DNA from: Flavobacteriaceae bacterium
GTDB taxonomy: Bacteria > Bacteroidota > Bacteroidia > Flavobacteriales > Flavobacteriaceae
Length of the DNA stretch: 32,000 nucleotides
Assembly: GCA_965224465.1 (NCBI GenBank)
Contig: OZ245049.1
Span: 3,240,001 to 3,272,000, forward strand
Direction: 5' to 3'
This document shows positions 10,696-29,307 of the stretch, in pieces. The position numbers and the translations under genes are program-made. The stretch's first letter is position 1. Each line of letters begins with the position of its first letter. A model generated the notes under the pieces. It searched no databases. It saw only the letters and a program-made list of their open reading frames with translations, and was not told the DNA's origin.

Positions 10696-12771
10696 ATGAA
10701 ATATATAGTGCTCATTTCCCTATTTTTTTGCTCATTTTTTGGGCGTTCCCAGCTATTGGAAACGAATCAACGGAAGTTAGATTCTATGTATCAGAATGCT
10801 CTTAATACAAAGCATACTGTAGAGAATAGATGTAAAGTTTACAAAAGTATTTGTTGGAAGGTTGTATATCGAGATCATCATCAGGGCTTACAGTATGCTT
10901 CGGAATATTATTCTTTGGCAATTGCTGCTCACTTGCCTAAGCATATTGCAGCTGCATCTCATTATTTGGGGATTTCTCAGATGTTACTTGGTAATTATGA
11001 TCTTTCAAATACAAGTTTTACAGAAGGCTTAGAGATTTCTTTAAAAACTAAAAATTTTTACCGAGCAGCTATGTTGTATGCGGATTTAGGGAATCTAATG
11101 GTTAAAACAGGTAAAATAGTTGCTGGAATGGAGTTTCATGAGAAATGTCTAAAAGTAGCTGAAGAGCACCATTTAATTGTTCAAAAAGCACGTGCAAAAA
11201 TTAATATCAGTCAAATCTATGAAAATCGAGGAGACTATAAGCAAAGTCTTAAAACATTGCAAGAAGCATTGTTAATATGTAAGGAGCATAAGCTAATTGG
11301 GTATATGTCTTCTGTATATGAAAGTCTTGGAGATGTGTTTTTAAATATTAAGGAGTTTGGGTCGGTTGAGAAAAATTATAAATTGGCATTAAAATTTGCT
11401 GAGAAAACAGATAATTCGAACAGAAGAATTCATTCTTTAACTAAATTGGCTAAAGTCAATCACGAGCAAGATAGTTTAAATATAGCCTCTAACTATTATA
11501 AAGAAGCACTGGAAATTGCATCCTCAAAAAACTTTCCTGCCCTTAAAGCATTGGTGTTGTCGGGTATTGCTAGTACTAAATTGAAGCAACATAAACTGGA
11601 TGAATCATTAAAGGATATCCTAGCATCGATCGCTCTTTTTGAAGCGTATGATGTGCAAGAAGATTTAGACCAAGCGTATTTGGTCGCAGCTCAGGTGTAT
11701 ACTGCTTTAGGAAGAAAAAAAGAGAGTACAAATTATTATCAGAAGTGCTATTACTTAGCGTTTTTGAATAGTAATTTCAAGCTATTAAACAGCGTGACTA
11801 AATCCCTTGCTGTTATTTCCGAGGACAAGGGGAATCAAGTATTAGCACTTAAATACTACAAAGAGTTTATTAAATATAATGGACTAAAAAGAGATGATGA
11901 TGATGTAAAGGAACTTATTAAGTTAGAGCTTAAAGCCAATTATCGAAATAAGGTGATTTTAGATAGTTTGAGTAAGAATGCTGAAATTATGTTATTAAAG
12001 GCAGCACATAGTAGAAGTGAAGCCTATAGTTTACTCAAAACCTATTTAGCGTATGCAGGTATAGGGATACTTTTTATGATACTTATATTTGGTCTGTATT
12101 TTTTTGAGCAGAAAAAAAGAGTTGCTGTTATCCTTGTGAATAAAAATCGCATTATAGCGAAAGCGCTTAAGGATAAGGGAACGCTTTTAAACGAAGTCCA
12201 TCATCGAGTAAAAAATAATATGCAAGTCGTTTCTTCGCTATTAAAGCTAAAGTCTATGAGTACCAATAATGAGTTTGCGAAAGTAGCACTCGTTGATAGC
12301 CAGAAACAAATTGAATCTATGCTGTTGGCACATCAAAAATTACATCAAAAAGGAAGTTTTGAAAGGATCTGTATTGTGGACTATTGTCGTGATATTGTCG
12401 CATTATTGTTGGGGTCTATCAAAACGGAAAAAGATGTTTTTATGGTTCATGGTGATACCTTGCTTATTCATATAGAACAAGTTCAGACATTTGGTTTTAT
12501 TATCAATGAATTGATTACAAATAGTCTTAAACATGCTTGGGGGCAAGATCAAAAAAAGAGGATTGAGCTCACTTTTCAAAAACGAGATAACGAGGTTCTG
12601 TTTGAATATTTAGACAATGGAAAGGGAATGGCAACTGATTTTAATATTAAGGAGTCCAAATCATACGGCACAAGATTAATCTATTCGCTTGTTAAGAGAC
12701 AGTTATTAGGGAATATTGGATTCTATTCTAAGAATGGAATTCATATAAAAATAAAATTTGATGCAAGATAA
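10696..12771 (+). CDS. TPR-repeat sensor histidine kinase (HisKA_2-type phospho-acceptor plus HATPase)
   Basis: The track ORF starts at a TTG (10645). The ATG at 10696 gives MKYIVLISLFFCSFFGRSQ (signal peptide) and is preferred. It has a TPR-like region, a TM helix (YLAYAGIGILFMILIFGLYFF), the HisKA_2 signature LLNEVHHRVKNNMQVVSSLLKLK, and ATPase boxes INELITNSLKHAW, LDNGKGM and YGTRLI. Confidence 0.8.
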   Translation: MKYIVLISLFFCSFFGRSQLLETNQRKLDSMYQNALNTKHTVENRCKVYKSICWKVVYRDHHQGLQYASEYYSLAIAAHLPKHIAAASHYLGISQMLLGNYDLSNTSFTEGLEISLKTKNFYRAAMLYADLGNLMVKTGKIVAGMEFHEKCLKVAEEHHLIVQKARAKINISQIYENRGDYKQSLKTLQEALLICKEHKLIGYMSSVYESLGDVFLNIKEFGSVEKNYKLALKFAEKTDNSNRRIHSLTKLAKVNHEQDSLNIASNYYKEALEIASSKNFPALKALVLSGIASTKLKQHKLDESLKDILASIALFEAYDVQEDLDQAYLVAAQVYTALGRKKESTNYYQKCYYLAFLNSNFKLLNSVTKSLAVISEDKGNQVLALKYYKEFIKYNGLKRDDDDVKELIKLELKANYRNKVILDSLSKNAEIMLLKAAHSRSEAYSLLKTYLAYAGIGILFMILIFGLYFFEQKKRVAVILVNKNRIIAKALKDKGTLLNEVHHRVKNNMQVVSSLLKLKSMSTNNEFAKVALVDSQKQIESMLLAHQKLHQKGSFERICIVDYCRDIVALLLGSIKTEKDVFMVHGDTLLIHIEQVQTFGFIINELITNSLKHAWGQDQKKRIELTFQKRDNEVLFEYLDNGKGMATDFNIKESKSYGTRLIYSLVKRQLLGNIGFYSKNGIHIKIKFDAR

Positions 12772-13459
12772 AAAGAGTTTTAAAGTGTTGATTGTTGATG
12801 ATGACGTGTTTATTTCTGAAATGCTCTGTGTTATTTTAGAAGCGTTAGGCTATGTTGTTCAAGACATTGCTTTTGATGCTAAGAGTGCGATTGCGTCATT
12901 AAAAACAAGCCTTCCTGACGTTGTTATTTTAGATATTCAAATGCATGGTGAAAATCAGGGTTTTACAATAGCAAAGTACATTAAAGAGCATTTAGATATT
13001 CCCTATATTTTTCTGACATCGTTTGCTGATGAAGCTACGGTAATTGAGGCTTCTCAGTTTACCCCAGATGGATATTTACTAAAACCTTTTAACGAACGTG
13101 ATATCTATGCAACACTCAATGTAATTCTCAGTAAATACAATAAAGAAATAAAATACATAGATTTAAAGGTTGGGCATAGGGTGCATAAAGTGAAAAAGGA
13201 AGACCTTCTTTGGGTAAAATCCTCAGACAAGTATATTGAGATTTACACCAAACAAAGGAGTTTTGTAAAACGGGACAGTATCGAATCATTTATGGAATTT
13301 CACCAATTAAAAAGCTTTATTCGAGTACACAGGTCTTATGCTGTGAAAATAGACGAAATAGAGAGCGTAAAAGGAGCGAAAATATTTATAGCGAAGCAAG
13401 AAATACCTATTTCAAAAACCTATCAAAAAGCATTTAAAAAAGCGTATTTATTAAATTAG
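12758..13459 (+). CDS. LytTR-family response regulator (REC plus LytTR DNA-binding domain)
   Basis: 233 aa. REC residues: LIVDDD, VILDIQM, FLTSF, LLKPF. The C-terminal LytTR domain reads DLLWVKSSDKYIEIYTKQRSFVKRDSIESFMEF...FIRVHRSYAVKIDEIESV...IPISKTYQKAFKK. It overlaps the kinase gene by 14 nt. Confidence 0.9.
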   Translation: MMQDKKSFKVLIVDDDVFISEMLCVILEALGYVVQDIAFDAKSAIASLKTSLPDVVILDIQMHGENQGFTIAKYIKEHLDIPYIFLTSFADEATVIEASQFTPDGYLLKPFNERDIYATLNVILSKYNKEIKYIDLKVGHRVHKVKKEDLLWVKSSDKYIEIYTKQRSFVKRDSIESFMEFHQLKSFIRVHRSYAVKIDEIESVKGAKIFIAKQEIPISKTYQKAFKKAYLLN

Positions 13460-13547: not shown

Positions 13548-13577
13548 TTCACGGACAAAACCCCTTCATTCACGACA
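13548..13577 (+). promoter_or_regulatory. direct-repeat operator candidate, copy A: TTCACGGACA-N11-TTCACGACA
   Basis: The half-sites start 21 nt apart (13548 and 13569) and are followed by TTTATTTTTTT. The flanks and the spacer differ from the other copies while the half-sites are conserved. Confidence 0.5.
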
Positions 13578-14702: not shown

Positions 14703-14732
14703 TTCACGGACACAAGTCTTTGATCCACGACA
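14703..14732 (+). promoter_or_regulatory. direct-repeat operator candidate, copy B: TTCACGGACA-N11-TCCACGACA
   Basis: Half-sites at 14703 and 14724 (21-nt phasing). The site sits in the leader upstream of the small ORF / adhesin 1. It is identical to copy C, including the spacer. Confidence 0.5.
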
Positions 14733-15437: not shown

Positions 15438-15464
15438 CCCATTACTCATTAAATAATAACAGAA

Positions 15465-18266
15465 ATGAAAAAAATATTAATTTTAGTAACAATCATGTTT
15501 ACAAGTTTTGTGTTTTCACAAAATAGAGGTAAAGTATGGTATTTTGGAGACAAAGCAGGTTTAGATTTTAATACAGATCCACCAACAGTTCTAACGAATG
15601 GTATGTTATCTACAAATGAAGGCTGTGCTTCAATATCGGACGCTTCGGGTAGTTTATTGTTTTATACTGGAGGGAGAAAGGTTTATAATAAGAATCATGT
15701 TCTAATGCCAAATGGGACAAGTGGTTTGGGAGGGGACACTTCAAGTGCTCAGTCTTCAATAATTGTTCCAGATCCAGGTAATCCAGACAGGTTTTATATT
15801 TTTGCTGTTTCTGTATACCCAAGTTCTAATGTTGTTTATTCATTAATAGATATGACCTTGGATGGAGGGAACGGGGATGTGGTTTCTGGTGCAAAGGCGA
15901 TGCCATTATTAATAGGAACTTCAGAGTGTATACAAGCTACTTTATCTGCTGATGGAACTTTTTGGTGGGTGTTAATGAATAAAGCCAATACAAATTCATA
16001 TTATGCATACAAAGTTACTGCTTCAGGAGTCGATGCTACACCCGTAATATCTTCTCTAGGAGCTGCTTCACAGGTAAGTGGAGGTATTTCTTATATTAAA
16101 TTTAATATCTCAGGCAGCAAAATGGTGAAAACTGGATTTTATATTAATTCTTTTGACTTATGTGATTTTGATACAGCTACTGGAGAAGTGACCTCTTCTT
16201 TGACCTTTCCCCTTGATAAGGCGTATGGTGTTGATTTTTCCCCAAATGGTAGGTTTATATATGTTGGGTCACTTAATACAGGTGTATATCAATATGATTT
16301 AAATGCAGGAAGTACGCAAGTAGCAATTGAGGCGTCAAAGTTTGAGGTGTTTACTGGTCGTAGTATAGGTGCTATTCAGGCCGCTCCTAACGGAAAAATA
16401 TATGTATCAAGATTTCAAAGTAGTCTTGATTATATTGGGAGTCCCAATAGTTTAGGGGTGGCGTGTGGCTACGTTTCTCAAGGCCAGAGTTTATCGGGTA
16501 AGTATGCGGCATTTGGTCTTCCAAATATAGTGTCCTTTTTTGTATCTACGGGGCCTCCTATTTTATCTAATTGTAGTACAACGTTGTTAACAGAGAATAG
16601 TGTTTCCTTAAATGTAGATGTTACTGGAGATGGTGGAGAAGACATCAGTCAAAGAGGGTTTTATTATGGTACAAGCCCAAATCCAACAACTAATCAGACC
16701 TTGGTTGCTGGTACTATAGGAACAATGGGGACTCCAGTTACTGGTTTAGTACCGGGGACTTTGTACTATTATAGGGGGTTTGCTACCAATTCTAATGGGA
16801 CGACTTATATGGCTGATTGTACATTTACAACGATTGTTTCAACCAATAATTACCCTACAATTACTGCTATTTCTAACCAATTTATTTGTCCAAATTCAGC
16901 GACAGCTCCGTTGTCTTTTACTATAGATGATGCTGAAACTCCAGTTGCTTCTTTAGTTGTTTCTGCCGTTTCTTCAAATACTACGTTGATACCAAATGCA
17001 AGTATTGTTATATCAGGTTCTGGAGCAACTCAAAGGGTTACAGTAACACCTGCTCTTGGTCAGACGGGTCTGGTAACCATTACTTTAACCGTATCGGATA
17101 CAGATTCAGGAACTGTAAGATCTATCTATACAGTAGATATAATTGATGTGACCAATCCTGAAATACCAACCTTGTCTGATATAACAAGCGAATGTTCGGT
17201 ACTTGTACCTGTACCAACTACGACAGATAATTGTACAGGAACAATTACAGGGACAACAGATGATCCATTGACCTATACAGCAATAGGTTCCTATACCGTT
17301 AACTGGAAATTTTCGGATGGGAATGGAAATTCAATTTTAGTTGCACAGAAAGTTACCATTACTGATGTGACCAAGCTAGTAGTCCCAACCTTGTCAGACA
17401 TAACAAGTGAATGTTCGGTACTTGTACCTGTACCAACTACGACAGGCAGCTGTACAGGAACAATCACAGGAACAACAGATGACCCGACGACCTATACAAC
17501 ACAGGGTTCTTATACAATCAATTGGACATTTGATGATGGAAACGGAAACTCAATTGTAGTTCCACAAAAAGTAGTTGTTAAAGACGTGACCAAACCTGTA
17601 GCAATAGCTCAAGACCTTACACTCACGTTAGATGATTTGGGTGAGGGTAGTATTTTAGCTTCAGATATTGATACTGGAAGTTCTGATAATTGTGACTTCA
17701 CCTTATCATTAGATATAGATACGTTTGATTGCTATACGATAGGTGATTATACGGTAATACTTAATGTTGAAGATGCAGCAGGGAATATTTCAACAGCGGC
17801 CGCTGTAGTGACTATTATGGGGGATGATAATGATGCTGATGGGATGGTAGATGCCTGTGATGAAGATGATGATAATGACGGTATTTTAGATGTAGATGAT
17901 AATTGTCCATGGAAATCAAATCCAAAACAAATTGATTTAGACAAAGACGGAACCGGAGATGTATGTGACGATTCTGTGGATATTTCAGTGACTCCTAACG
18001 ATACATTGACCCCAAATGGTGATGGTGTAAATGATTCTTGGCATATAGAAAATATACAGAAATATCCTTATGCTACCGTAAAAGTATTTAATAGAAATGG
18101 AGTTGAAGTATTTAAAAGTTCGAATTATAAAAATGATTGGGGAGGAGAATCTGCTAAAGGAGGAAGCGGCTTATTACCTGCAAATTCCTATTATTATATC
18201 ATCAATTTAAACCAACCTAAATCTGGTGCAAGTCCAATTACAGGGTGGTTTTATATTAATTATTAG
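15465..18266 (+). CDS. T9SS type-B cargo adhesin 1: propeller-like head, FN3/Ig-like domains, 2 HYR-like repeats, TSP3-like Ca motifs, gliding-motility C-terminal sorting domain
   Basis: 933 aa with signal peptide MKKILILVTIMFTSFVFSQ and a unique N-terminal ~560 aa. The C-terminal 228 aa are shared with the other two adhesins: [28 protein letters not shown]...[13 protein letters not shown], then [16 protein letters not shown]...VKVFNRNG...YKNDWGG...SYYYIINL...ITGWFYINY. This is the signature of the Bacteroidota gliding-motility / T9SS type-B CTD. Confidence 0.9.
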   Translation: MKKILILVTIMFTSFVFSQNRGKVWYFGDKAGLDFNTDPPTVLTNGMLSTNEGCASISDASGSLLFYTGGRKVYNKNHVLMPNGTSGLGGDTSSAQSSIIVPDPGNPDRFYIFAVSVYPSSNVVYSLIDMTLDGGNGDVVSGAKAMPLLIGTSECIQATLSADGTFWWVLMNKANTNSYYAYKVTASGVDATPVISSLGAASQVSGGISYIKFNISGSKMVKTGFYINSFDLCDFDTATGEVTSSLTFPLDKAYGVDFSPNGRFIYVGSLNTGVYQYDLNAGSTQVAIEASKFEVFTGRSIGAIQAAPNGKIYVSRFQSSLDYIGSPNSLGVACGYVSQGQSLSGKYAAFGLPNIVSFFVSTGPPILSNCSTTLLTENSVSLNVDVTGDGGEDISQRGFYYGTSPNPTTNQTLVAGTIGTMGTPVTGLVPGTLYYYRGFATNSNGTTYMADCTFTTIVSTNNYPTITAISNQFICPNSATAPLSFTIDDAETPVASLVVSAVSSNTTLIPNASIVISGSGATQRVTVTPALGQTGLVTITLTVSDTDSGTVRSIYTVDIIDVTNPEIPTLSDITSECSVLVPVPTTTDNCTGTITGTTDDPLTYTAIGSYTVNWKFSDGNGNSILVAQKVTITDVTKLVVPTLSDITSECSVLVPVPTTTGSCTGTITGTTDDPTTYTTQGSYTINWTFDDGNGNSIVVPQKVVVKDVTKPVAIAQDLTLTLDDLGEGSILASDIDTGSSDNCDFTLSLDIDTFDCYTIGDYTVILNVEDAAGNISTAAAVVTIMGDDNDADGMVDACDEDDDNDGILDVDDNCPWKSNPKQIDLDKDGTGDVCDDSVDISVTPNDTLTPNGDGVNDSWHIENIQKYPYATVKVFNRNGVEVFKSSNYKNDWGGESAKGGSGLLPANSYYYIINLNQPKSGASPITGWFYINY
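17145..17582 (+). repeat. in-frame tandem repeat, 2 x 219 nt (73-aa HYR-like unit)
   Basis: Units start at 17145 and 17364; the next domain starts at 17583. Unit consensus: [73 protein letters not shown]. Confidence 0.9.
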
Positions 18267-18280
18267 TAAAAAATAGATAA

Positions 18281-19156
18281 ATGAAGAATATATATATAAT
18301 CGTAGGGGTTTTTATGATGCTATGTTCAATAACAACACTGGCACAGCAAACACCAGAATATACTTTTTGGAGACAAAATATGGTCTTGGTAAATCCTGGA
18401 TATGTGGGGAGTACAGAAAAAGTAGAGATAAGTATTAATAGTTATAAAGATAAGCTTCAAGGTGTTTATGAGGGACCTAAAACACTTTCGCTTACCGCGC
18501 AGTGGAGTCTTAATGATAAGGTGGGGCTTGGTTTAGATATTGTTACAGACAATGTTTTTATTCAGAAAGAAACCAATGTATTTGTGGATTATTCGTATAA
18601 ATTAAGTTTTGGAGAAAAGCGAGATTTATATTTAGGATTGAAAGCGGGAGGTAGTTTTTTTAATGTTGATTTTTCAAGATTAAAAACAGTTGATCCTGCA
18701 AATCAAGGAGAGGTAAGTAACTTTAATCCCAATGTTGGAATTGGAGTGTATTACAAAACGAATAACTATTTTGTGAGTTTGTCAGCACCAAGGATCTTAA
18801 AAGCCAAACGTTACGAGGATGTATCAGGAGTTGCGCAAGAAGCATCTGATGCCACATTGCTTATGTTTGGAGGAGGCTATTGGTATGATTTGAGTACAGA
18901 CATTCAGATTGTACCTGCATTCATGACTCGTTATATTGATGGTGCGCCATTTTCTTTTGACCTTTCTACCTCCGTTCGTTTTTATGACAAGATGGAATTA
19001 GGCGTAAATTATAGGTTAAATAATGCTATTTCTGCTATGGTCTCTTTTGAAATTCTAAAAATGATAGACATAGGATTTGCGTATGACTATTCGATATCAA
19101 CTATAAATACTCAAACAGATGGCGGCCCAGAGTTTTTATTAAAAGTAAAATTTTAA
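18281..19156 (+). CDS. PorP/SprF-family type IX secretion outer-membrane protein, paralogue 1
   Basis: 291 aa with signal peptide ...TLAQQ and the family N-terminal signature QQTPEYTFWRQNMVLVNPGYVGS (compare QQDPxFSQYxxNxxxxNPAYAG). It has beta-barrel-like alternating strands and a terminal F. It starts 14 nt after the adhesin stop codon. Confidence 0.9.
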   Translation: MKNIYIIVGVFMMLCSITTLAQQTPEYTFWRQNMVLVNPGYVGSTEKVEISINSYKDKLQGVYEGPKTLSLTAQWSLNDKVGLGLDIVTDNVFIQKETNVFVDYSYKLSFGEKRDLYLGLKAGGSFFNVDFSRLKTVDPANQGEVSNFNPNVGIGVYYKTNNYFVSLSAPRILKAKRYEDVSGVAQEASDATLLMFGGGYWYDLSTDIQIVPAFMTRYIDGAPFSFDLSTSVRFYDKMELGVNYRLNNAISAMVSFEILKMIDIGFAYDYSISTINTQTDGGPEFLLKVKF

Positions 19157-19227
19157 GAAGCTGAAATCAAATTTTTAGGGAATGAAGAAGGGGGGCTAAA
19201 AAGATGTTTTCTGTTTAAATACAAAGG

Positions 19228-19279
19228 TTAATACCAAATACATTTCTAAGTGACGTTTTAGAAATGTATTTGGTATTAA
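19228..19279. repeat. perfect 22-bp inverted repeat (hairpin, 8-nt loop) at the cassette 1/2 junction
   Basis: TTAATACCAAATACATTTCTAA (19228-19249), loop GTGACGTT, TTAGAAATGTATTTGGTATTAA (19258-19279). The left arm equals the first ~35 nt of R3/R4 and the right arm equals the terminal nucleotides of R1/R2. It may act as the cassette-1 terminator. Confidence 0.8.
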
Positions 19280-19494
19280 ACCATGTTTTTGAATTGAATA
19301 TTGGCAGGTGTTAAAAAGGGAGGGGTATAAGAGTGTTGTTTTAGGAGAGGCATCATATCCACGATCCAACGAATTATTTTTGGGGACAACATGAAAAAAC
19401 CCCATTTTTTTTAGGCGATTAAACCCGAATTATAATTTAAAGTAGAAACGAATAAAGTACCTAAAATTAGCGAAAAAACATATTATATAGTCTG

Positions 19495-19524
19495 TTCACG
19501 GACACAAGTCTTTGATCCACGACA
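19495..19524 (+). promoter_or_regulatory. direct-repeat operator candidate, copy C: TTCACGGACA-N11-TCCACGACA
   Basis: Half-sites at 19495 and 19516 (21-nt phasing). The site ends 79 nt upstream of the adhesin 2 ATG (19603). Confidence 0.55.
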
Positions 19525-19602
19525 TTTCTTTTTATAGCTGTCCATAAATTAGTACCATTGTTAACGACATTTTTTTAAACGTTCTAATAAATAACTAAAT
19601 TT

Positions 19603-22600
19603 ATGAAAACAAAATTATTTTTACTCATGTTAATCATGAGTTTTATGGGGTTTTCCCAAACTACCAATATTCCAGATGCTAATTTTGAACAAGCATTGGT
19701 TGACCTAGGAATTGATTCCAATGGTCTAAATGGAACGATATTGAATGCAGATGCAATTGGAGTACGTACATTACAAATTGAAAGTAAAAACATTGTTGAC
19801 TTAACAGGTATTGAGGTTTTTACAGATTTAGTGAACTTAAATTGCAACTATAATCAGTTAACTCGTTTAGAGCTAACACAGAATGTGAAATTAAAAAACT
19901 TATCTTGTAGATTTAATCAAATAGCAAGTTTAGATATAACACAGAATTTGGATTTAAGGCAATTAGATTATAGTAGTAATCAAGTATCTAATTTGGATCT
20001 AAGTCAACATACGTCATTGGTTTATTTAATGTGTTTTTCTAATCAGATAAGTGACATAGATATAACAAAAAATACGGTTTTAAAGTATTTTTATTGTAAT
20101 GATAATCAGTTGACTAGTTTAGATATAACACAGAACTCTTTATTAGTATCTCTTGATTATAGTATCAATCAGATACCTAATTTAGATGTAAGTCAACATG
20201 CATTTTTAATAGAATTAAAGTGTACTTCCAATCAAATAACGAGTTTAGATGTTACAAATAACCTGGTTTTAGAAAGATTGAATTGTTCTTCAAATCAGTT
20301 AACTAGTTTAGATGTTACACAGAATATAGCTTTGATGTTTCTTGATTATTCTTCAAATGAAATATCGAATTTTGATGGTACAAAGAACCTAGCTTTGGAG
20401 TCACTTAATTGTTCTGTAAATCAATTAATGATTTTAGATGTTTCAAAGAACCTAAATTTAATAGTATTATATTGTTATATCAATAAAATAACTGCTTTAG
20501 ATTTAAGCAAGAACACGAGTTTGAGAACTTTTTATTGTTTTTCTAATAGGTTAACAAGTTTAGATATTAGAAATGGGGAGAATAAGAATTTTACTGGTTT
20601 TTCTGCTCAGTTTAATCCAACTCTTTTATGTATTTTGGTGGATGATGCATCTTGGAGTACTGTAAATTGGGAAAATATAGATGCTACCTCTAGTTTTAAT
20701 GATAGCTGTTGTAGTACTTCACTAACATTAGACAATTCAAGCTTAAAAGACTTAAAAGGGTTTTGTTCCGTTGCAAATCCAATAGCTCCTACCGCAACTA
20801 CTAGTTGTGGTGAAACTATAACAGGGACAACTTCAACAGTCTTTCCAATAGAAATTCAGGGGGCATCCGTTGTTACTTGGGACTTTGATGATGGAAATGG
20901 ACATAAGACGGCACAGACACAAAAGGTTATTGTAAAAGACACCCAAGCACCAATAATTCCTACTTTGTCAGACATCACAGGCGAATGTTCTGGAACAGTA
21001 CCTGTACCAACTACAACAGATAATTGTTCAGGAATAATTACAGGAACAACAGATGATTCATTGACCTATACAGGAAAAGGCTCCTATACAGTCAATTGGA
21101 AATTCACGGATGAGATTGGAAATTCAATCGTAGTTGCACAGAAAGTAATTCTTACTGATGTGACCAAGCCAGCAATTCCAACCTTGTCAAACATCACAGG
21201 CGAATGTTCTGCAACAGTACCTGTGCCAACTACAACAGATAATTGTTCAGGAATAATTACAGGAACTACAGATGAACCGTTGACTTATACAGGAAAAGGT
21301 TCCTATATAGTCAATTGGAAATTTACGGATGAGATTGGAAATTCAATCGTAGTTGTGCAGAAAGTAATTCTTACTGATGTGACCAAGCCAGCAATTCCAA
21401 CCTTGTCAGACATCACAGGCGAATGTTCTGTAACAGTACCTGTACCAACTACAACAGACAATTGTACAGGAATAATTACAGGAACAACAGATGATCCGTT
21501 GACCTATACAGGAAAAGGTTCCTATACAGTCAACTGGAAATTTGATGATGGGAATGAAAATTCAATCATAGTTGCACAGAAAGTAATTGTTACTGATGTG
21601 ACCAAACCAGTGATTCCAAGCTTAATAGACATCACAGGCGAATGTTCTGCAACAGTACCTGTGCCAACTACAACAGACAATTGTACAGGAATAATTACAG
21701 GAACAACAGATGATCCATTGAGCTATACAGGAAAAGGTTCCTATACAGTCAACTGGGAATTTTCGGATGGGAATGGGAATTCAATTGTAGTTCCACAAAA
21801 AGTACATGTTGCTGATGTGACCAAACCAGTAATTCCAACCTTGTCAGACATCACAGGCGAATGTTCTGTAACAGTACCTGTACCAACTACGACAGATAAT
21901 TGTTCAGGAATAATTACAGGAACAACAGATGATCCATTGAGCTATACAGGAAAAGGTTCCTATACAGTCAACTGGAAATTTACGGATGAGATTGGAAATT
22001 CAATCGTAGTTGCACAGAAAGTAACCGTTACTGATGTGACCAAGCCAGTGATTCCAAGCTTAACAGACCTCACAGGCGAATGTTCTGTAACAGTACCTGT
22101 ACCAACTACAACAGACAATTGTACAGGAACAATCACAGGAACAACAGACGATCCATTGACTTATACAACACAAGGTTCTTATAGAATCAACTGGACATTT
22201 GATGATGGAAATGACAATTCAATCGTAGTTGCACAGAGAGTAATTGTTAAAGATGTGACCAATCCTGTAGCGATGGCTCAAGACTTTTCGCTCACTTTAG
22301 ATGATTTGGGTGAGGGCAGTATTTTAGCTTCAGATATTGACAATGGAAGTTCTGATAATTGTGACTTCACCTTGTCGTTAGATATAGATATGTTTGATTG
22401 CTATATGATAGGTGATTATACGGTAATACTTAGTGTTGAAGATGCAGGAGGAAATATTTCAACAGCGACTGCTGTAGTGACTATTCTGGGTGATGATAAT
22501 GATGCTGATGGTATGGTAGATGCTTGTGATGAAGATGATGATAATGACGGTGTTTTAGATGTAGATGATAATTGTCCATGGAAATCAAATCCAAAACAAA

Positions 22601-22935
22601 TTGATTTAGACAAAGACGGGACCGGAGATGTCTGTGATGATTCTGTGGATATTTCAGTGACTCCTAACGATACATTGACTCCAAATGGTGATGGTGTAAA
22701 TGATACTTGGCATATAGAAAATATTCAGAAATATCCTTTTGCTACGGTAAAAGTATTTAATAGAAATGGACTTGAAGTATTTAAAAGCAGGAATTATAAA
22801 AATGATTGGGGAGGAGAATCTACTAAAGGAGCAAGAGGCTTATTACCTGTAAATTCTTATTATTATATCATCAATCTAAACCAACCAAAATCTGGTGTAA
22901 GTCCAATAACAGGGTGGTTTTATATTAATTATTAG
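19603..22935 (+). CDS. T9SS type-B cargo adhesin 2: leucine-rich-repeat head, 6 (+1 degenerate) HYR-like repeats, TSP3-like Ca motifs, type-B CTD
   Basis: 1110 aa with signal peptide [19 protein letters not shown]. About 12 x 22-aa LRRs ([21 protein letters not shown]). The stalk and C-terminus are near-identical to adhesins 1 and 3. Confidence 0.9.
19762..20568 (+). repeat. about 12 tandem 66-nt (22-aa) leucine-rich repeats in the adhesin 2 head
   Basis: Recurrent pattern such as [74 protein letters not shown]. The units are diverged at nucleotide level. Confidence 0.8.
20938..22251 (+). repeat. in-frame tandem repeat, 6 x 219 nt (73-aa HYR-like unit)
   Basis: Unit starts at 20938, 21157, 21376, 21595, 21814 and 22033; the array ends at 22251. 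A degenerate partial unit precedes it ([44 protein letters not shown]). Confidence 0.9.
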
Positions 22936-22949
22936 TAAAAAACAGATAA

Positions 22950-23825
22950 ATGAAGAATATATATATAATCGTAGGGGTTTTTATGATGCTATGTTCAATA
23001 ACAACACTAGCACAGCAAACACCAGAATATACTTTTTGGAGACAAAATATGGTCTTGGTAAATCCTGCCTATGTGGGGAGTACAGAAAAAGTAGAGATAA
23101 GTATTAATAGTTATAAAGATAAGCTTCAAGGTATTTATGAAGGGCCTAAAACACTTTCGCTTACCGCGCAGTGGAGTCTAAATGATAAGGTGGGGCTTGG
23201 TTTAGATATTGTTACAGACAATGTTTTTATTCAAAAAGAAACCAATGTATTTGTGAATTATTCGTATAAATTAAGTTTTGGAGAAAAGCGAGATTTATAT
23301 TTAGGATTGAAAGCGGGAGGTAGTTTTTTTAATGTTGATTTTTCAAGATTAAAAACAGTTGACCCAGCAAATCAAGGTAAGGTAAGTAACTTTAATCCCA
23401 ATGTTGGAATTGGAGTGTATTACAAAGCGAACAACTATTTTGTGAGTTTATCAGCACCAAGGATCTTAAAAGCCAAGCGTTACGAGGATGTGTCAGGAGT
23501 TTCGCAAGAAGCATCTGATGCCACATTACTTATGTTTGGAGGAGGGTATTGGTATGATTTGAGTACAGACATTCAGATTGTACCTGCATTCATGACTCGT
23601 TATATTGATGGTGCGCCGTTTTCTTTTGACCTTTCTACCTCCGTTCGTTTTTATGATAAGATGGAATTAGGCGTAAATTACAGGTTAAATAATGCTGTTT
23701 CTGCCATGGTATCTTTTGAAATTCTAAAAATGATAGACATAGGATTTGCGTACGACTATTCGATATCAACTATAAATACTCAAACAGATGGTGGTCCAGA
23801 GTTTTTATTAAAAGTAAAATTTTAA
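22950..23825 (+). CDS. PorP/SprF-family type IX secretion outer-membrane protein, paralogue 2
   Basis: 291 aa with 7 substitutions relative to paralogue 1. The 14-nt spacing after the adhesin stop codon is the same. Confidence 0.9.
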   Translation: MKNIYIIVGVFMMLCSITTLAQQTPEYTFWRQNMVLVNPAYVGSTEKVEISINSYKDKLQGIYEGPKTLSLTAQWSLNDKVGLGLDIVTDNVFIQKETNVFVNYSYKLSFGEKRDLYLGLKAGGSFFNVDFSRLKTVDPANQGKVSNFNPNVGIGVYYKANNYFVSLSAPRILKAKRYEDVSGVSQEASDATLLMFGGGYWYDLSTDIQIVPAFMTRYIDGAPFSFDLSTSVRFYDKMELGVNYRLNNAVSAMVSFEILKMIDIGFAYDYSISTINTQTDGGPEFLLKVKF

Positions 23826-23896
23826 GAAGCTGAAATCAAATTTTTAGGGAATAAGGATGGGGCTCTAAAAAGATGCTTTCAGTCTAAATAAAAAGG

Positions 23897-24083
23897 TTAA
23901 TACCAACTATATTTCCAAGTGACGGTTTAGAAATCGAATTATTTTTTGTTTTAGCTAGGCGAAAAATGGAAGAATAGCCTTCGCTATGGTTCTATTTTTT
24001 AACAACGTTAGAACGTAAAATAAACTATGTATATCGGTCATTTTGGATTGCAGTTGGTATAATTTAAATTACTGCCTTTTTTT
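23897..24083 (+). repeat. noncoding repeat family R, copy R3 (full length), ending in a weak terminator hairpin plus T run
   Basis: Starts TTAATACCAACTATATTTCCAAGTGACGGTTTAGAAAT (left arm of the 19228 palindrome). It continues as the reverse complement of R1/R2 and ends GCAGT-16 nt-ACTGC followed by CTTTTTTT (24050-24083). Confidence 0.6.
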
Positions 24084-24122
24084 GGTGCTTAAATTACTTG
24101 GTTTTTTAAGTGGAAAGTAGAG

Positions 24123-24152
24123 TTCACGGACAAAACTATTTCATCCACGACA
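24123..24152 (+). promoter_or_regulatory. direct-repeat operator candidate, copy D: TTCACGGACA-N11-TCCACGACA
   Basis: Half-sites at 24123 and 24144 (21-nt phasing), ~270 nt upstream of the adhesin 3 ATG. The surrounding leader is otherwise unrelated to the leaders of copies B and C. Confidence 0.5.
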
Positions 24153-24418
24153 TTTCTTTTTTTAAGAGGTACTAAAACGGTAGTATTGTGTATTATTTTA
24201 TTGTAAAAATAGGATGTATTCAATTTATCCCCATAGATAGTGCTTGTTGTTCATTTTTTTATTTGCAGATTTTTTTCTTGTTTGAAGAGATTAAAACCTG
24301 TAATAATGTCACTTCTGAAATTGAAATATCCCCTTTGTTTTAAAAAGATAAATCATTTAAAAATCACTTCCAATAGGAGGATGTAAACTTATATATTTCT
24401 TAACTATTATATCTAATT

Positions 24419-27400
24419 ATGAAAAGACTATTACTTATTTATTCAATGTTCCTTTTAGGGAGTCAATTTATGAATGCCCAAACATTGGTTGCTGGAGATA
24501 TCGCAATTATAGGTGTAAATGAGGATGCTAGTCCTGAAATCGGTGAAGATCATAGTTTTACATGGATTGCACTTAAAGAAATACCAGCAGGCGAAATTAT
24601 TTACTTTACCGAGCAAGGAGTCAATACGGTTACTATGGAATGGTATGGGAATACGGAGGGACATTTTAGTTGGACTGCGCCATCTGGAGGCTTAGCATGT
24701 GGGTCAATTGTTCATATTTATGAGAAAGGACAGACGGATGTTATGGGGGTTTTGGGAGGAGGAACCGTATCTCCTATTTTATCAGGTATAGGTTGGAACT
24801 TGGTCGGAGGTGATCAGGTGCTGGCTTACTGTGCATCGGATGTGAGAGCTTCAATCTCAAGTACTGTTTTTATTACAGGAATTCATTTAGGTGATGACGG
24901 TTCCTATGGGAAAACAAATGGTTGGACTTCTCTTTCTTTTATTGGGACAAGTTATGGTATGTGTCATTTACCTCCTGGCTTGACAAATGGTGTTGATTGT
25001 ATTTCATTGTTTAATCCCTATGAAGGGCTCTTTGAAATAGATAATAATAGGTATTCGGGATCTTTAGAGGGGACAGCTTCTGAATTGAGAGCGTTAATCA
25101 ATACTAGTTATAAGTTATCTAGGGGGGATTGGGAGGGAGATAACAATCTTCCAAAGAATATTTCAATTGAGAGCTACTCTCCAAATGTGATATGCGAAGC
25201 AGCATGTATAGCTCCTGATGCCCCAACAATTACCGTAGATGATCATATGGTATGTTTAGGGGGGGCGATTACTTTATCTATTTCAGGATCATTGAATGAT
25301 GCTTCAGCTTGGTATATTTATACATCATCCTGTGGGTCTAGTTCTAATCTCGTAGGAACTACTTCAGGGTCTAGTTTTGAGGTGACTCCGTATTTTGCTG
25401 CTACTTACTATATTAGGGGAGAAGACGGTACTGGATGTGTCGATGAGTCTACAGTGCCGTGTGGAGAAATAAAGCTGTTCGGAGATCCTTCATTAACGTA
25501 TACAGAATTTAGTTACGAGTCAGAAAGCTATTGTTTGAATTCCTCGGATCCAACACCAACAATTACAGGTTTGTCAGGTGGGACGTTTACGAGTTCTCCG
25601 TCAGGCTTATCTATTGATTCTAGTACAGGATTGATTGATGTTTCGGCTTCCATAGTAGATGTTTATCTCATCAAATATACAGTAGCAGAGTGTACTGAAT
25701 CAAGTATGTTTCGCGTGAGTATAAAAGCTTTTGATGATGCGTCTTTCAATTATGAAACTGCAAGTTATTGTTTGAATGCCTCGGATCCAACACCAACAAT
25801 TACAGGTTTGTTGGGGGGAGTGTTTACGAGTTCTCCATCAGGCTTGTCTATTGATTCTAGTACAGGATTGATTGATATTTCGGCTTCCACGAAAGGTGTT
25901 TATGGAGTTATATATACAACAACAGGAACTTGTAGCCGTTCGTCTGGTGTTTATGTAACCATTGAAGACATAACCGATCCTGAAATCCCAACCTTGTCAG
26001 ACATCACAGGCGAATGTTCTGCAACAGTACCTGTACCAACTACAACAGATAATTGTTCAGGAATAATTACAGGAACAACAGATGAGCCATTGAGCTATAC
26101 AGGAAAAGGCTCCTATACAGTCAACTGGAAATTTACGGATGAGATTGGAAATTCAATCGTAGTTGCACAGAAAGTCATTCTTACTGATGTGACCAAACCA
26201 GTAGTTCCAACCTTGTCAGACATCACAGGCGAATGTTCTGCAACAGTACCTGTACCAACTACAACAGACAATTGTTCAGGGACAATCACAGGAACAACAG
26301 ATGAACCGTTGACTTATACAGGAAAAGGTTCCTATATAGTCAATTGGAAATTTACGGATGGGAATGGAAATTCAATCGTAGTTGCACAGAAAGTAACCGT
26401 TACTGATGTGACCAAACCAGTTGCTCCAAACTTAACAGACATCACAGGCGAATGTTCTGTAACAGTACCTGTACCAACTACGACAGATAATTGTTCAGGA
26501 ATAATCACTGGGACAACAGATGAACCGTTGACTTATACAGGAAAAGGTTCCTATATAGTCAATTGGAAATTTACGGATGGGAATGGAAATTCAATCGTAG
26601 TTGCACAGAAAGTAACCGTTACTGATGTGACCAAACCAGTTGCTCCAAACTTAACAGACATCACAGGCGAATGTTCTGTAACAGTACCTGTGCCAACTAC
26701 GACAGATAATTGTTCAGGAATAATCACTGGGACAACAGATGATCCAGTAAGTTATACAGGAAAAGGCACCTATACAATCAACTGGAAATTTTCGGATGGG
26801 AATGGGAATTCAATTGTAGTTCCGCAGAAAGTAATTGTTACTGATGTGACCAAGCCAGTGATTCCAAGCTTAATAGACATCACAAGCGAATGTTCTGCAA
26901 CAGTACCTGTGCCAACTACAACAGACAATTGTACTGGAATAATTACAGGAACAACAGACGATCCGTTGACCTATACAGCAAAAGGTTCTTATACAATCAA
27001 CTGGAAATTTGATGATGGGAATGAAAATTCAATCATAGTTGCACAGAAAGTAATTGTTACTGATGTGACCAAGCCAGTGATTCCAAGCTTAATAGACATC
27101 ACAGGCGAATGTTCTGCAACAGTACCTGTGCCAACTACAACAGACAATTGTACTGGAATAATTACAGGAACAACAGACGATCCGTTGACCTATACAGCAA
27201 AAGGTTCTTATACAATCAGCTGGAAATTTGATGATGGGAATGGGAATTCAATCGTAGTTGCACAGAAAGTAATTGTTACTGATGTGACCAAACCAGTAGT
27301 TCCAACCTTGCCAGACATCACAGGTGAATGTTCGGTACTTGTACCTGTACCAACTACGACAGATAATTGTTCAGGAATAATTACAGGAACAACAACAGAA

Positions 27401-28183
27401 CCGCTGACCTATACAGCACAAGGTTCTTATACAATCAACTGGATATTTGATGATGGAAACGACAATTCAATTGTAGTTGCACAGAGAGTAATTGTAAAAG
27501 ATGTGACCAATCCTGTAGCGATAGCTCAAGACTTTACGCTCACTTTAGATGATTTGGGTGAGGGCAGTATTTTAGCTTCAGATATTGACAATGGAAGTTC
27601 TGATAATTGTGACTTCACCTTGTCGTTAGATATAGATATGTTTGATTGCTATACGATAGGTGATTATACGGTAATACTTAGTGTTGAAGATGCAGGAGGA
27701 AATATTTCAACAGCGACTGCTGTAGTGACTATTCTGGGTGATGATAATGATGCTGATGGTATGGTAGATGCTTGTGATGAAGATGATGATAATGATGGTG
27801 TTTTAGATGTAGATGATAATTGTCCATGGAAATCAAATCCAAAACAAATTGATTTAGACAAAGACGGGACCGGAGATGTCTGTGATGATTCTGTGGATAT
27901 TTCAGTGACTCCTAACGATACATTGACTCCAAATGGTGACGGTGTAAATGATACTTGGCATATAGAAAATATTCAGAAATATCCTTTTGCTACGGTAAAA
28001 GTATTTAATAGAAATGGACTTGAAGTATTTAAAAGTAGGAATTATAAAAATGATTGGGGAGGAGAATCTACTATAGGAGGAAGCGGCTTATTACCTGTAA
28101 ATTCTTATTATTATATCATCAATCTAAACCAACCAAAATCTGGTATAAGTCCAATAACAGGGTGGTTTTATATTAATTATTAG
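24419..28183 (+). CDS. T9SS type-B cargo adhesin 3: unknown head, 2 x 79-aa Ig-like repeats, 7 HYR-like repeats, TSP3-like Ca motifs, type-B CTD
   Basis: 1254 aa with signal peptide [21 protein letters not shown] and a unique ~515-aa N-terminal region. The stalk and C-terminus are near-identical to adhesin 2. Confidence 0.9.
25508..25966 (+). repeat. 2 x ~237-nt (79-aa) tandem domain repeat in the adhesin 3 head
   Basis: [48 protein letters not shown]... aligns with [48 protein letters not shown].... Unit starts at 25508 and 25745. Confidence 0.8.
25967..27499 (+). repeat. in-frame tandem repeat, 7 x 219 nt (73-aa HYR-like unit)
   Basis: Starts at 25967 ([18 protein letters not shown]...); the next domain starts at 27500, and 7 x 219 = 1533 nt. 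Adjacent units 2/3 (plus the start of 4) and 5/6 are almost identical at nucleotide level. Confidence 0.9.
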
Positions 28184-28197
28184 TAAAAAATAGATAA

Positions 28198-29073
28198 ATG
28201 AAGAATATATATATAATCGTAGGGGTTTTTATGATGCTATGTTCAATAACAGCACTGGCACAGCAAACACCAGAATATACTTTTTGGAGACAAAATATGG
28301 TCTTGGTAAATCCTGCCTATGTGGGGAGTACAGAAAAAGTAGAGATAAGTATTAATAGTTATAAAGATAAGCTTCAAGGTGTTTATGAAGGACCTAAAAC
28401 ACTTTCGCTTACCGCGCAGTGGAGTCTTAATGATAAGGTGGGGCTTGGTTTAGATATTGTTACAGACAATGTTTTTATTCAGAAAGAAACCAATGTATTT
28501 GTGGATTATTCGTATAAATTAAGTTTTGGAGAAAAGCGAGATTTATATTTAGGATTGAAAGCGGGAGGTAGTTTTTTTAATGTTGATTTTTCTAGATTAA
28601 AAACAGTTGACCCTGCAAATCAAGGAGAGGTAAGTAACTTTAATCCCAATGTTGGAATTGGAGTGTATTACAAAGCGAACAACTATTTTGTGAGTTTATC
28701 AGCACCAAGGATCTTAAAAGCCAAGCGTTACGAGGATGTGTCAGGAGTTGCGCAAGAAGCATCTGATGCCACATTGCTTATGTTTGGAGGAGGGTATTAT
28801 TATGATTTGAGTACAGACATTCAGATTGTACCTGCATTCATGACTCGTTATATTGATGGTGCGCCGTTTTCTTTTGACCTTTCTACCTCCGTTCGTTTTT
28901 ATGACAAGATGGAATTAGGCGTAAATTACAGGTTAAACAATGCTATTTCTGCCATGGTATCTTTTGAAATTCTAAAAATGATAGAAATAGGATTTGCGTA
29001 CGATTATTCGATATCAACTATAAATACTCAAACAGATGGCGGTCCAGAGTTTTTATTAAAAGTAAAATTTTAA
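28198..29073 (+). CDS. PorP/SprF-family type IX secretion outer-membrane protein, paralogue 3
   Basis: 291 aa with 5 substitutions relative to paralogue 1 and 8 relative to paralogue 2. Confidence 0.9.
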   Translation: MKNIYIIVGVFMMLCSITALAQQTPEYTFWRQNMVLVNPAYVGSTEKVEISINSYKDKLQGVYEGPKTLSLTAQWSLNDKVGLGLDIVTDNVFIQKETNVFVDYSYKLSFGEKRDLYLGLKAGGSFFNVDFSRLKTVDPANQGEVSNFNPNVGIGVYYKANNYFVSLSAPRILKAKRYEDVSGVAQEASDATLLMFGGGYYYDLSTDIQIVPAFMTRYIDGAPFSFDLSTSVRFYDKMELGVNYRLNNAISAMVSFEILKMIEIGFAYDYSISTINTQTDGGPEFLLKVKF

Positions 29074-29147
29074 GAAGCTGAAATCAGATTTTTAGGGAAT
29101 AAGGATGGGGCTCTAAAAAGATGTTTTCAGTCTAAATAAAAAGGTGG

Positions 29148-29250
29148 TAATACCAAATACATTTCCAAGTGACGGTTTAGAGATAAAATAAACTATGTAT
29201 ATCGGTCATTTTGGATTGTAGTTGGTATAATTTAAATTACTGCCTTTTTT
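29148..29250 (+). repeat. noncoding repeat family R, copy R4 (internally deleted), with a weak terminator hairpin plus T run
   Basis: TAATACCAAATACATTTCCAAGTGACGGTTTAGAG is joined directly to ATAAAATAAACTATGTATATCGGTCATTTTGGATTGTAGTTGGTATAATTTAAATTACTGCCTTTTTT. It lacks ~85 nt that are present in R3. Confidence 0.6.
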
Positions 29251-29307
29251 ATTTTCTAAATTATTCCAGTAGTATCATTTTTAAGTACTAGTAATTTTGT
29301 TTTTAAA

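Follow-up and report, generated by a model that had tools for sequence, protein, structure and literature searches.

A tandem array of three two-gene cassettes (15465-29073) is found in a 32,000-nucleotide (nt) stretch of the genome of a Flavobacteriaceae bacterium (GenBank assembly GCA_965224465.1, contig OZ245049.1, positions 3,240,001 to 3,272,000 of the forward strand), which is referred to here as the window and from whose first letter all positions are counted. In each cassette, a gene for a cargo protein (AdhA, AdhB or AdhC) whose C-terminal domain (CTD) is a type-B domain of the T9SS (type IX secretion system) is followed by a gene for a carrier of the PorP/SprF family (PorA, PorB or PorC), and sequence comparisons indicate that the secretion tail and the carrier are homogenised as one unit, while the N-terminal heads of the cargos are not. 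The model as a whole, namely three self-contained expression units with a homogenised chassis, swappable heads and control by a LytTR-type response regulator, is considered likely. The cassette itself is not new and its parts are textbook T9SS; the concrete and testable additions made here are the concerted evolution of tail and carrier, a sharp hypervariable boundary between near-identical genomes, and a conserved regulatory box.

The first-pass annotation of this DNA, which was made from the sequence alone, had placed three consecutive two-gene cassettes in this region, and open reading frame (ORF) calling reproduces all of their coordinates exactly (Table 1). There are only two ORFs per cassette, with cargos of 933-1254 amino acids (aa), and the spacer between the cargo stop codon and the PorP gene is 14 nt in all three. 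In BLASTN comparisons the cassettes align in register, with 17144-19265 of cassette A matching 21813-23934 of cassette B (92.7%), 17144-19262 of A matching 27061-29181 of C (92.8%), and 20949-23931 of B matching 26197-29181 of C (93.6%). As had been described, this homology spans the 14-nt spacer, the PorP gene and the 3' flank, the last for ~105-110 nt according to the BLASTN blocks. It had also been said to start exactly at the first stalk repeat, but in AdhB the protein homology begins one degenerate HYR unit earlier. Identity between cassettes is uneven: when taken per 100-nt window, the constant module and PorP gene are mostly 91-100% identical, compared with ~80-90% for the stalk units. 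The earlier inventory of shared parts was incomplete, as it held neither the box upstream of the cassettes nor the 3' boundary formed by a hairpin resembling a miniature inverted-repeat transposable element (MITE), both of which are described below.

Each cargo ends in a common 228-aa tail, and the DNDADG, DDDNDG and DLDKDG motifs and the GWFYINY end that had been reported for it are visible in the translations. When the C-termini of AdhA, AdhB and AdhC were compared with type-B CTD models, they scored 52.2, 50.6 and 49.5 bits with TIGR04131 (cut-off 35) and 82.9, 81.4 and 80.8 bits with PF13585 (CHU_C; cut-off 27), with the matches stopping 2-3 residues short of the stop codon, and a TSP_3 match of 30.5 bits was obtained in AdhA. 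At the nucleotide level, the AdhA module is 93.3-93.6% identical to the B and C copies, which are 98.5% identical to each other, and the CTDs of the three cargos are 90-96% identical. The best match in a search with the constant module reaches 70% identity. It has been described that type-B signals may need up to 235 C-terminal residues (PMC12618676), and the 228-aa module is close to this length.

The tail is preceded by the stalk, in which a 73-aa (219-nt) HYR-like repeat is present in 2, 6 and 7 copies in AdhA, AdhB and AdhC, respectively, at an exact 219-nt spacing, as first counted. The stalk units are 75-97% identical among themselves, which is below the identity of the constant module and PorP. 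With PF23237 (HYR_4C; cut-off 27), AdhB scores 81.7 bits and AdhC 87.8 bits, and AdhA, with its two units only, stays below the cut-off at 23.4 bits. The four Cys per unit expected from the name HYR_4C are not found in the stalk, where each unit has 2 Cys (...GECS...DNCSG...).

All three 291-aa ORFs downstream of the cargo genes belong to the PorP/SprF family, passing the TIGR03519 cut-off of 90.55 over model positions 4-292 of 292 and scoring 196-198 bits with PF11751 (cut-off 22.3). They had been called near-identical, and their nucleotide identity is indeed 96.6-97.6%; they are not identical copies, with 5-8 differences over 291 aa. Since the ORFs are intact and dN/dS among the copies is 0.08-0.19 (0.08-0.09 for PorA against PorB or PorC), which is evidence of purifying selection, all copies are probably functional. 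In every related locus covering the junction, the PorP gene is directly 3' of the cargo gene. Exact-protein look-ups of PorA, AdhA (P0178) and the porin encoded downstream of the array returned no match, and scans of genome representatives and metagenomes gave no relative closer than 70%.

Concerted evolution of the tail and the carrier is seen in the distribution of changes within the window. At variable sites, the changes unique to A, B and C number 40, 6 and 4 in the constant module and 16, 14 and 7 in the PorP genes (Fisher p = 6e-4), and because these patterns differ, the adjacent segments must have had different histories. This segment-wise contingency test was used in place of a runs test for clustering of site patterns.

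A second line of evidence comes from the related loci surveyed around this PorP clade (L001-L028). The locus L011 belongs to a different species, its kinase being 63% (aa, same domains), its regulator 73% and its PorP 68-70% identical to those of the window, and its gene order of kinase, regulator, box, leucine-rich repeat (LRR)-head cargo, PorP, box and head-C-type cargo matches that of cassettes B then C. The LRR heads of the two loci are 52% identical from the signal peptide to the head end. Because the order of LRR head then head C is common to both, the duplication that gave rise to B and C is older than the split between the two species; PorB and PorC are, however, 97.4% identical at the amino acid level, as opposed to ~69% between the window and L011. 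In a neighbour-joining tree of 29 PorPs, each set of paralogues, namely A/B/C of the window and those of L005, L015 and L021, groups by genome, with identities within genomes of 100% in L005, 100% in L015 and 98.9% in L021, as opposed to 87-88% between those genomes. L005 and L021 also have a head order in common, in which M43-type heads (50% identical) are followed by a reprolysin-type cargo that is 83% identical over 1500 aa. The doublets in these genomes have 3' blocks of high identity that run through PorP (3190 nt at 93.4% in L005, 2076 nt at 97.8% in L015 and 1595 nt at 94.2% in L021), and the 5' parts beside these blocks are divergent or unrelated, with the L015 cargos being 58% identical overall. 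The earlier suggestion that recombination maintains a homogenised chassis is thus borne out by the segment patterns, by the L011 gene order set against PorP clustering, and by the differences between strains described below.

On one 583-kb contig (Ga0209291_1000002), which holds both L012 and L028, two PorPs of 98.9% identity are separated by 12.8 kb of sequence that includes other genes, and homogenisation may therefore not be limited to strictly adjacent cassettes.

The 90% PorP cluster holds one sequence from another assembly, that of L008, a locus collinear with window 9206-17600. The kinase and regulator genes of the two are 100.0% identical in nucleotide sequence and the 2-kb spacer behind them is 99.5% identical; the identical regulator is carried by only two contigs. 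Across window 10084-15196 there are just 13 differing alignment columns, six of which belong to one 6-nt indel. Dense divergence from L008 sets in at 15518, which is 53 nt inside adhA and closely behind the codons of the putative signal peptide. Beyond this point the propeller is 84% identical, the FN3-like domain 89%, the Ig-like domain 87%, the constant module 93% and PorP 95%. The first L008 cargo has 6 stalk units, as opposed to 2 in AdhA, and the second L008 cassette, with at least 8 stalk units, has a paralogue of head A in place of the LRR head; the two L008 propellers are 87% identical, with a dN/dS of 0.94. A comparison of related strains for head gain or loss, which the first-pass annotation had recommended, thus finds that both head content and repeat number differ between the window and L008. 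Within the window, a block of 203 nt (14542-14744) that ends 13 nt past Box A recurs at 19334-19536 with 92% identity, and the LRR-head gene begins 67 nt after this second copy. This arrangement suggests replacement of the whole stretch from box to stalk in a second cassette of the head-A type.

Apart from the cassettes, nine clustered substitutions relative to L008 are found at 9800-9990, within the gene for a 401-aa protein (95.5% in a 200-nt window from 9806), the rest of this flank being 99.5-100% identical to L008. This cluster may be a small recombination tract.

The similarity of the cassettes could also be explained by recent independent duplications without gene conversion, with the heads inserted later by illegitimate recombination or horizontal transfer. 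Tandem duplication must have occurred sometime, and the second cassette of L008 is a whole-cassette duplicate of A that includes the upstream region and the head. It also fits this explanation that the PorP copies are not identical, with a synonymous divergence of 0.07-0.14, and that the runs test on the site patterns is not significant (p = 0.068). However, the LRR-then-head-C order in common with L011, whose PorP is only ~69% identical, makes the cassettes older than PorPs of 97% identity would suggest, and L005 and L021 repeat that pattern. The divergence patterns of constant module and PorP differ significantly (p = 6e-4), as opposed to sharing one history, and G+C content at third codon positions (GC3) is uniform across heads and chassis (0.21-0.28), with no foreign-DNA signal by GC or GC3 in any head and so no compositional sign of recent import. 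Independent recent duplication is accordingly regarded as unlikely, and gene conversion among older cassettes is preferred.

The three heads are mutually unrelated, as had been claimed, with no BLASTP match between them at E < 0.5, and their assignments were confirmed and in one case extended: head A is of the propeller type, head B has 12 LRRs, and head C, which had been noted as Cys-rich and otherwise unassigned, is a chain of Ig-like domains. The AlphaFold2 (AF2) model of head A has a 7-bladed beta-propeller followed by beta-sandwich domains (pLDDT 86.3), and the top Foldseek match is 1L0Q, a surface-layer protein with a YVTN propeller and PKD domain, with further matches to WD40 propellers. 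In head B, the 12 LRR units have an exact 21-aa spacing and match PF12799 (LRR_4) with 46 bits and the NCBIfam internalin J model with 131 bits, the latter being under its cut-off. The degenerate HYR-type unit of AdhB (aa 380-446) is 39% identical to a stalk unit (E 1.5e-12). The model of head C is an Ig-like beta-sandwich chain (AF2 pLDDT 88.0), for which Foldseek gives fragments of the Aureispira grappling-hook protein GhpA as the top matches, followed by cadherins and S-layer proteins; its Ig-like repeats of ~79 aa each correspond to repeated DNA at 25508-25925 with a 237-nt spacing (repeat family D15). The cargo N-termini are hydrophobic, and AF2 places an N-terminal helix at aa 2-17 in head C and aa 2-22 in head A.

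Sequence searches of the heads against the PDB returned weak WD40 matches only for head A and none for head C; a catalytic signature was found in none of the three heads, and no toxin domains were found. Since homologues of heads A and C in other bacteria carry a sorting domain of either type A (PF18962) or type B (PF13585), these heads can be regarded as portable modules. From the predicted fold classes, a function of the three cargos as adhesins would be a reasonable expectation.

Doublets of a related chassis, made up of FN3, GEVED, many TSP3 repeats, a type-B CTD and PorP, are present in marine Flavobacteriaceae at L005 6343-16482 (CAXYDR010000003.1), L021 1585-10417 and L015 6875-15080. 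Their heads are Zn-metalloproteases (M43, reprolysin/M12B), and the related chassis thus also displays enzymes.

It is standard for a type-B cargo gene to have a porP/sprF-like gene directly 3' of it, and it has been shown that the carrier is required for secretion, is limiting, is not recycled and remains bound as an anchor, and that closely related CTD/carrier pairs cross-react (PMC12618676, PMC9143113, PMC12635249). Each PorP of the window had been described as the private partner of its adhesin, which stands as far as gene position is concerned. Because the CTDs are 90-96% and the PorPs 97-98% identical, however, the carriers are most likely interchangeable rather than private, and the three CTD/PorP pairs can probably replace one another. 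By analogy with such limiting carriers, one carrier per cargo would be better explained by stoichiometry than by specificity (PMC12618676).

Two modes of anchoring have been described for such carriers. The track function of SprF needs a CxC (Cys324/Cys326) in its periplasmic C-tail, which forms a disulfide to GldK (PMC12635249), and the static type-B cargos of Flavobacterium johnsoniae and Porphyromonas gingivalis are encoded in operons with a PorE-like gene, examples of which are PG1035-PorP-PorE and Fjoh_3952-3951-3950 (PMC12618676, PMC9143113). The PorPs of the window end at the last barrel strand (...GGPEFLLKVKF) with no C-tail; their sole Cys is at position 15, within the signal peptide, and the CxC track-attachment tail of SprF is absent from all three 291-aa proteins. 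A PorE-like (OmpA_C) gene was found neither between nor beside the cassettes when ORFs and Pfam matches of the neighbouring genes in the window were inspected. Since they have neither a CxC tail nor a PorE-like partner, the window PorPs fit neither of the described classes, and their sequences lead one to expect, provisionally, carrier-only, non-motile anchoring. In the PorP of L008 (9968-10843), a Gly near the C-terminus is replaced by Cys (TDCGPEF as opposed to TDGGPEF), which is a single Cys and not the CxC of SprF.

The first-pass annotation had pointed to SprB and SprF of F. johnsoniae, and the pairing of type-B cargo with carrier indeed holds for the window. One reading of this likeness is that the cargos are SprB-like mobile gliding adhesins, with the PorPs as equivalents of SprF that couple them to the gliding track. 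A type-B CTD with a downstream PorP/SprF gene is found in both, the window has no PorE-like gene, which has been linked to 'dynamic' substrates (PMC12618676), and public sources label homologues as 'gliding motility-associated C-terminal domain' proteins. Gliding adhesins are not implied by the pairing, however, as the 291-aa PorPs end in ...LLKVKF with no CxC tail, and sprC/sprD-like genes are absent, the cassettes having two genes each. The cargos of the window are also only ~1000 aa long, and SprB of F. johnsoniae is several times longer. The gliding reading is for these reasons thought to be improbable, and non-motile surface display by a bound carrier is preferred.

Directly 5' of the array lies a two-gene pair for a sensor histidine kinase and a response regulator with a LytTR DNA-binding domain, and 13 of the surveyed related loci have a LytTR regulator immediately 5' of a type-B cargo gene. 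A 29-nt direct-repeat box with a 9-12-9 layout, TTCACGGAC-N12-TCCACGAC, has 4 matches in the window, as opposed to 0.01 expected by chance, and all 4 are on the + strand in spacers ahead of cargo genes; in the first (Box 0), the right-hand half reads TTCACGAC. The search of the window found no box after 24151, that is, none 3' of the last cassette. Box 0 is kept in the same position in L008, where a box also precedes the second cassette within a spacer that is otherwise just 81.6% identical. In L011 the box occurs twice, each time before a cargo gene (0.00 expected), with the positional counterpart of Box 0 at 5122. LytTR binding sites have this 9-12-9 arrangement of direct repeats. Site geometry, adjacency and conservation suggest that the LytTR regulator acts on the boxes, and it is put forward as the candidate regulator of the array.

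The more general gene order around this PorP clade (L001-L028) consists of a 212-aa ORF and an extracytoplasmic function (ECF) sigma factor on the minus strand, a LytS-type kinase with two-transmembrane (2TM) domains and, after it, a LytTR regulator, a single or double cassette of PorP and a cargo of 754-1713 aa, and a FAD-dependent protein.

The spacer between the regulator and adhA (13460-15464) is 2 kb long and ORF-poor, and it holds two boxes, two MITE-like copies and short internal repeats (14132-14202 = 15366-15436). A cassette that was lost may have left this stretch behind. Two small ORFs lie between Box A and adhA, at 14994-15173 (59 aa, with a signal-peptide-like N-terminus) and 15176-15325 (49 aa), both of which are gene-called in L008, where a related 87-aa ORF precedes the second cassette. 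One possibility is that they encode a small secreted peptide under LytTR control.

Several observations weigh against the model of homogenised, LytTR-controlled adhesin cassettes. In addition to the runs test given above, the contig of L011 ends within its second cargo gene and its second PorP is consequently not in the tree. The heads on related chassis in L005, L021 and L003 are metalloproteases, which means that the chassis is not specific to adhesins, and the interchangeability of the PorPs is an extrapolation from a single case of crosstalk in F. johnsoniae. On the regulatory side, the more distant loci L001-L007 lack the box; they have a LytS-type kinase and a different common element before the ATG. 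Box A is 762 nt distant from its ATG. The Bacteroidota -7 motif TAnnTTTG is not consistently placed 3' of the boxes, and for this reason no promoter is claimed. A sigma-70 promoter scan likewise gave fewer promoter-like sites than in shuffled sequence.

A stable hairpin is predicted by RNA folding after each PorP gene and coincides with a MITE-like element, the left end of which is the point where homology between cassettes ends. The intrinsic-terminator scan found none that is convincing after the PorP genes, and the hairpins came from direct folding, with -38.6 kcal/mol (z = -7.05) for 19200-19310 and -31.2 kcal/mol (z = -3.8) for 29140-29262. The MITE-like element is ~160 nt long with terminal inverted repeats of ~24 nt and is present at 13736-13896, 14356-14494, 23898-24059 (inverted) and 29186-29250 (partial), with a collapsed form at 19209-19298; copies in the upstream spacer and copies 3' of PorP genes point in opposite directions. 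One pair, 13736-13896 and 23898-24059, is inverted and 82% identical and flanks cassettes A and B.

The inverted pair, together with variable heads on constant flanks that recall cassette systems and an array that differs between near-identical strains, might be taken as a sign of programmed antigenic or phase variation, with one expressed copy and silent donors or with a segment flipped by a recombinase. Against this, all three cargo genes are full-length, with a start codon, a putative signal peptide and a box of their own, and each is accompanied by a separate carrier gene on which purifying selection acts. There is no recombinase or invertase ORF in the 32-kb window, and the inverted copies, being just 82% identical, resemble MITE insertions with their own terminal inverted repeats. 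The invertase or silent-cassette reading was rejected on these grounds (complete copies, no recombinase ORF, MITE-like inverted copies), and programmed variation is considered very unlikely. An assembly artefact, in which one cassette is mis-assembled as three, can be excluded even though 219-nt repeats and 2-3 kb blocks at 93% identity are difficult for short-read assembly, as the copies carry unique, unrelated heads of 1.3-1.7 kb, their shared parts differ by 2.4-7%, the source sequence is a single 5.24-Mb contig, and tandem cassettes are present in the independent ENA assembly ERZ25073217 (L008), with doublets in four other genomes.

In the preferred model of homogenised cassettes, each unit would consist of a 9-12-9 box, a cargo gene, the 14-nt spacer, a PorP/SprF carrier gene and a hairpin. 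By analogy with characterised systems, the cargo would be exported by Sec, its C-terminal ~228-aa module with the type-B CTD would be recognised by the T9SS, whose core genes are located outside the window, and the PorP/SprF-family carrier would take the cargo from the translocon, stay bound to it and double as its outer-membrane anchor; because such carriers are not recycled, each cargo gene would bring its own carrier gene. Recombination and gene conversion among the tandem copies would keep stalk, tail, carrier and 3' flank similar, and the heads would persist as separate lineages because conversion cannot spread into unrelated heads. On either side of a head, the conserved box (left) and the HYR stalk repeats (right) may serve as homology arms for replacement of the head and for gain or loss of stalk units, the outcome of which would be a strain-specific set of binding modules (propeller, LRR and Ig-chain) held at different distances from the cell. 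The TPR-kinase/LytTR pair probably switches the array on via the box before each cassette.

No description of tandem type-B cargo/PorP arrays with co-homogenised tail and carrier was found in the open-access papers searched, nor one of T9SS cargo controlled by a LytTR regulator. Among polymorphic surface or toxin loci, CdiA-CT/CdiI arrays and Rhs also have a constant scaffold for delivery, exchangeable functional modules, a partner gene directly downstream and recombination at the junction of constant and variable parts. The polarity of the window cassettes is reversed with respect to these, the N-terminal part being variable and the C-terminal part constant, and the downstream partner is a conserved carrier as opposed to a variable immunity protein.

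Among T9SS loci, the pairs SprB-SprF, Fjoh_3952-Fjoh_3951 and Fjoh_1645-Fjoh_1646 of F. johnsoniae are alike in that a type-B cargo gene is followed by a PorP/SprF-family gene (PMC12618676, PMC9143113). Those are distinct specificity pairs, whereas the window has a tandem triplication with a common stalk, tail, carrier and flank and copies 97-98% identical, has neither the CxC of SprF nor the PorE-like partner of Fjoh_3952, and is LytTR-linked with a box before each cassette. A tandem LRR array in Flavobacterium psychrophilum resembles the window in its strain-variable gene copy number and internal repeat number, the latter varying in a gliding-associated protein, and in needing long reads, and one of the window heads is also an LRR head; all proteins of that array are paralogous LRR proteins, as opposed to unrelated folds on one chassis, each with a PorP (PMC8400371). 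In P. gingivalis Kgp/RgpA/HagA, surface modules of T9SS cargo are likewise shuffled by recombination or gene conversion with allelic exchange, giving strain mosaics independent of the core phylogeny (PMC5266723). These differ from the window cargos in that they have a type-A CTD, are handled by PorV, are attached to anionic lipopolysaccharide (A-LPS) and have no tandem carriers, and the homogenised part is the adhesin domains, as opposed to the secretion tail and carrier (PMC5266723).

Only a few examples of paired type-B cargo and carrier are known, from F. johnsoniae and P. gingivalis. For the evolution of carrier specificity, and for the reason why each cargo has a carrier of its own, this locus offers a natural experiment: gene conversion appears to keep tail and carrier matched, and the heads meanwhile diverge or undergo replacement. 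Such matching argues for stoichiometric, interchangeable carriers as opposed to lock-and-key pairs, and it marks out the unit that must stay constant, namely the ~228-aa tail and the carrier. Just past the putative signal peptide, identity drops abruptly from 100% to ~84% in an otherwise identical background, which points to a surface locus that is hypervariable between strains of a free-living marine bacterium and comparable to the antigen loci of pathogens. The box and the LytTR regulator provide a directly testable regulatory link for T9SS cargo, and the chassis suggests a route to displaying arbitrary domains on flavobacterial surfaces.

A more speculative extension, considered possible and less likely than not to hold in full, is that the conserved locus, a two-component system with a LytTR regulator followed by a varying number of box, cargo and PorP units, serves marine Flavobacteriaceae specifically for diversifying their surface proteins, with box and stalk forming a cassette-exchange platform. 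Owing to the co-homogenised tail and carrier, a head of any kind inserted between box and stalk repeats would then immediately be regulated, secreted and anchored, and phages, grazers and changing particle or host surfaces would select for differing sets of heads and stalk lengths in genomes that are otherwise identical. The PorPs, being neither track-coupled by a CxC nor tethered by PorE, would on the same tentative reading represent a third anchoring class of type-B carriers.

Table 1. Positions of the cassette components, regulatory genes, boxes and 3' elements in the window.
Feature	Position	Strand	Description
Sensor histidine kinase	10645..12771	+	TPR + HisKA_2 + HATPase_c (Pfam); first gene of the pair directly 5' of the array
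Response regulator	12758..13459	+	LytTR DNA-binding domain; Response_reg 75.7 bits, LytTR 58.7 bits
Box 0	13548..13576	+	TTCACGGAC-N12-TTCACGAC; 89 nt past regulator stop; 1 mismatch
Box A	14703..14731	+	TTCACGGAC-N12-TCCACGAC; 762 nt before AdhA ATG
AdhA cargo ORF	15465-18266	+	933 aa
AdhA putative signal peptide and head A	15465..17156	+	propeller ~aa 23-360, FN3-like ~aa 365-455, Ig-like ~aa 465-560
AdhA stalk	17157..17594	+	2 x 219-nt HYR-like units
AdhA constant module	17580..18266	+	including stop; HYR/Ig-like, TSP3, type-B CTD
PorA	18281..19156	+	291 aa; TIGR03519 201.9 bits, PF11751 196.1 bits
3' flank after PorA (to ~19265) and 41-nt-arm hairpin (19209-19298)	19157..19298	+	candidate terminator or collapsed MITE-like element
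Box B	19495..19523	+	108 nt before AdhB ATG; 0 mismatches
AdhB cargo ORF	19603-22935	+	1110 aa
AdhB putative signal peptide and head B	19603..20949	+	N-cap, 12 LRR units (aa 76-327), Cys-rich linker, degenerate HYR unit
AdhB stalk	20950..22263	+	6 x 219-nt HYR-like units
AdhB constant module	22249..22935	+	type-B CTD, 228 aa
PorB	22950..23825	+	291 aa; TIGR03519 203.9 bits
3' flank after PorB (to ~23934) and ~160-nt MITE-like element with terminal inverted repeats (23900-24060)	23826..24060	+	
Box C	24123..24151	+	296 nt before AdhC ATG; 0 mismatches
AdhC cargo ORF	24419-28183	+	1254 aa
AdhC putative signal peptide and head C	24419..25978	+	beta-sandwich ~aa 22-260, Cys-rich Ig-like domain, two Ig-like repeats
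AdhC stalk	25979..27511	+	7 x 219-nt HYR-like units
AdhC constant module	27497..28183	+	type-B CTD, 228 aa
PorC	28198..29073	+	291 aa; TIGR03519 201.4 bits
3' flank after PorC (to ~29181) and stem-loop followed by U-run	29074..29262	+	candidate terminator closing the array

Scanning the window for Rfam families and tRNAs gave no match. In its last 1.4 kb (30579-32000) there is also no + strand ORF of at least 100 aa. A phosphate-selective porin gene (29349-30578) lies downstream of the array. On the upstream side, a signalling cluster at 1131-5750 consists of a TPR protein (1131-3086), a TPR and HATPase_c kinase (3083-5086) and a receiver-domain protein (5073-5750), and is followed by a TonB-dependent receptor (6223-9039) and the 401-aa protein mentioned above (9073-10278), for which the Pfam scan gave no match and the precomputed annotation of L008 and L009 gives Beta_helix_4.

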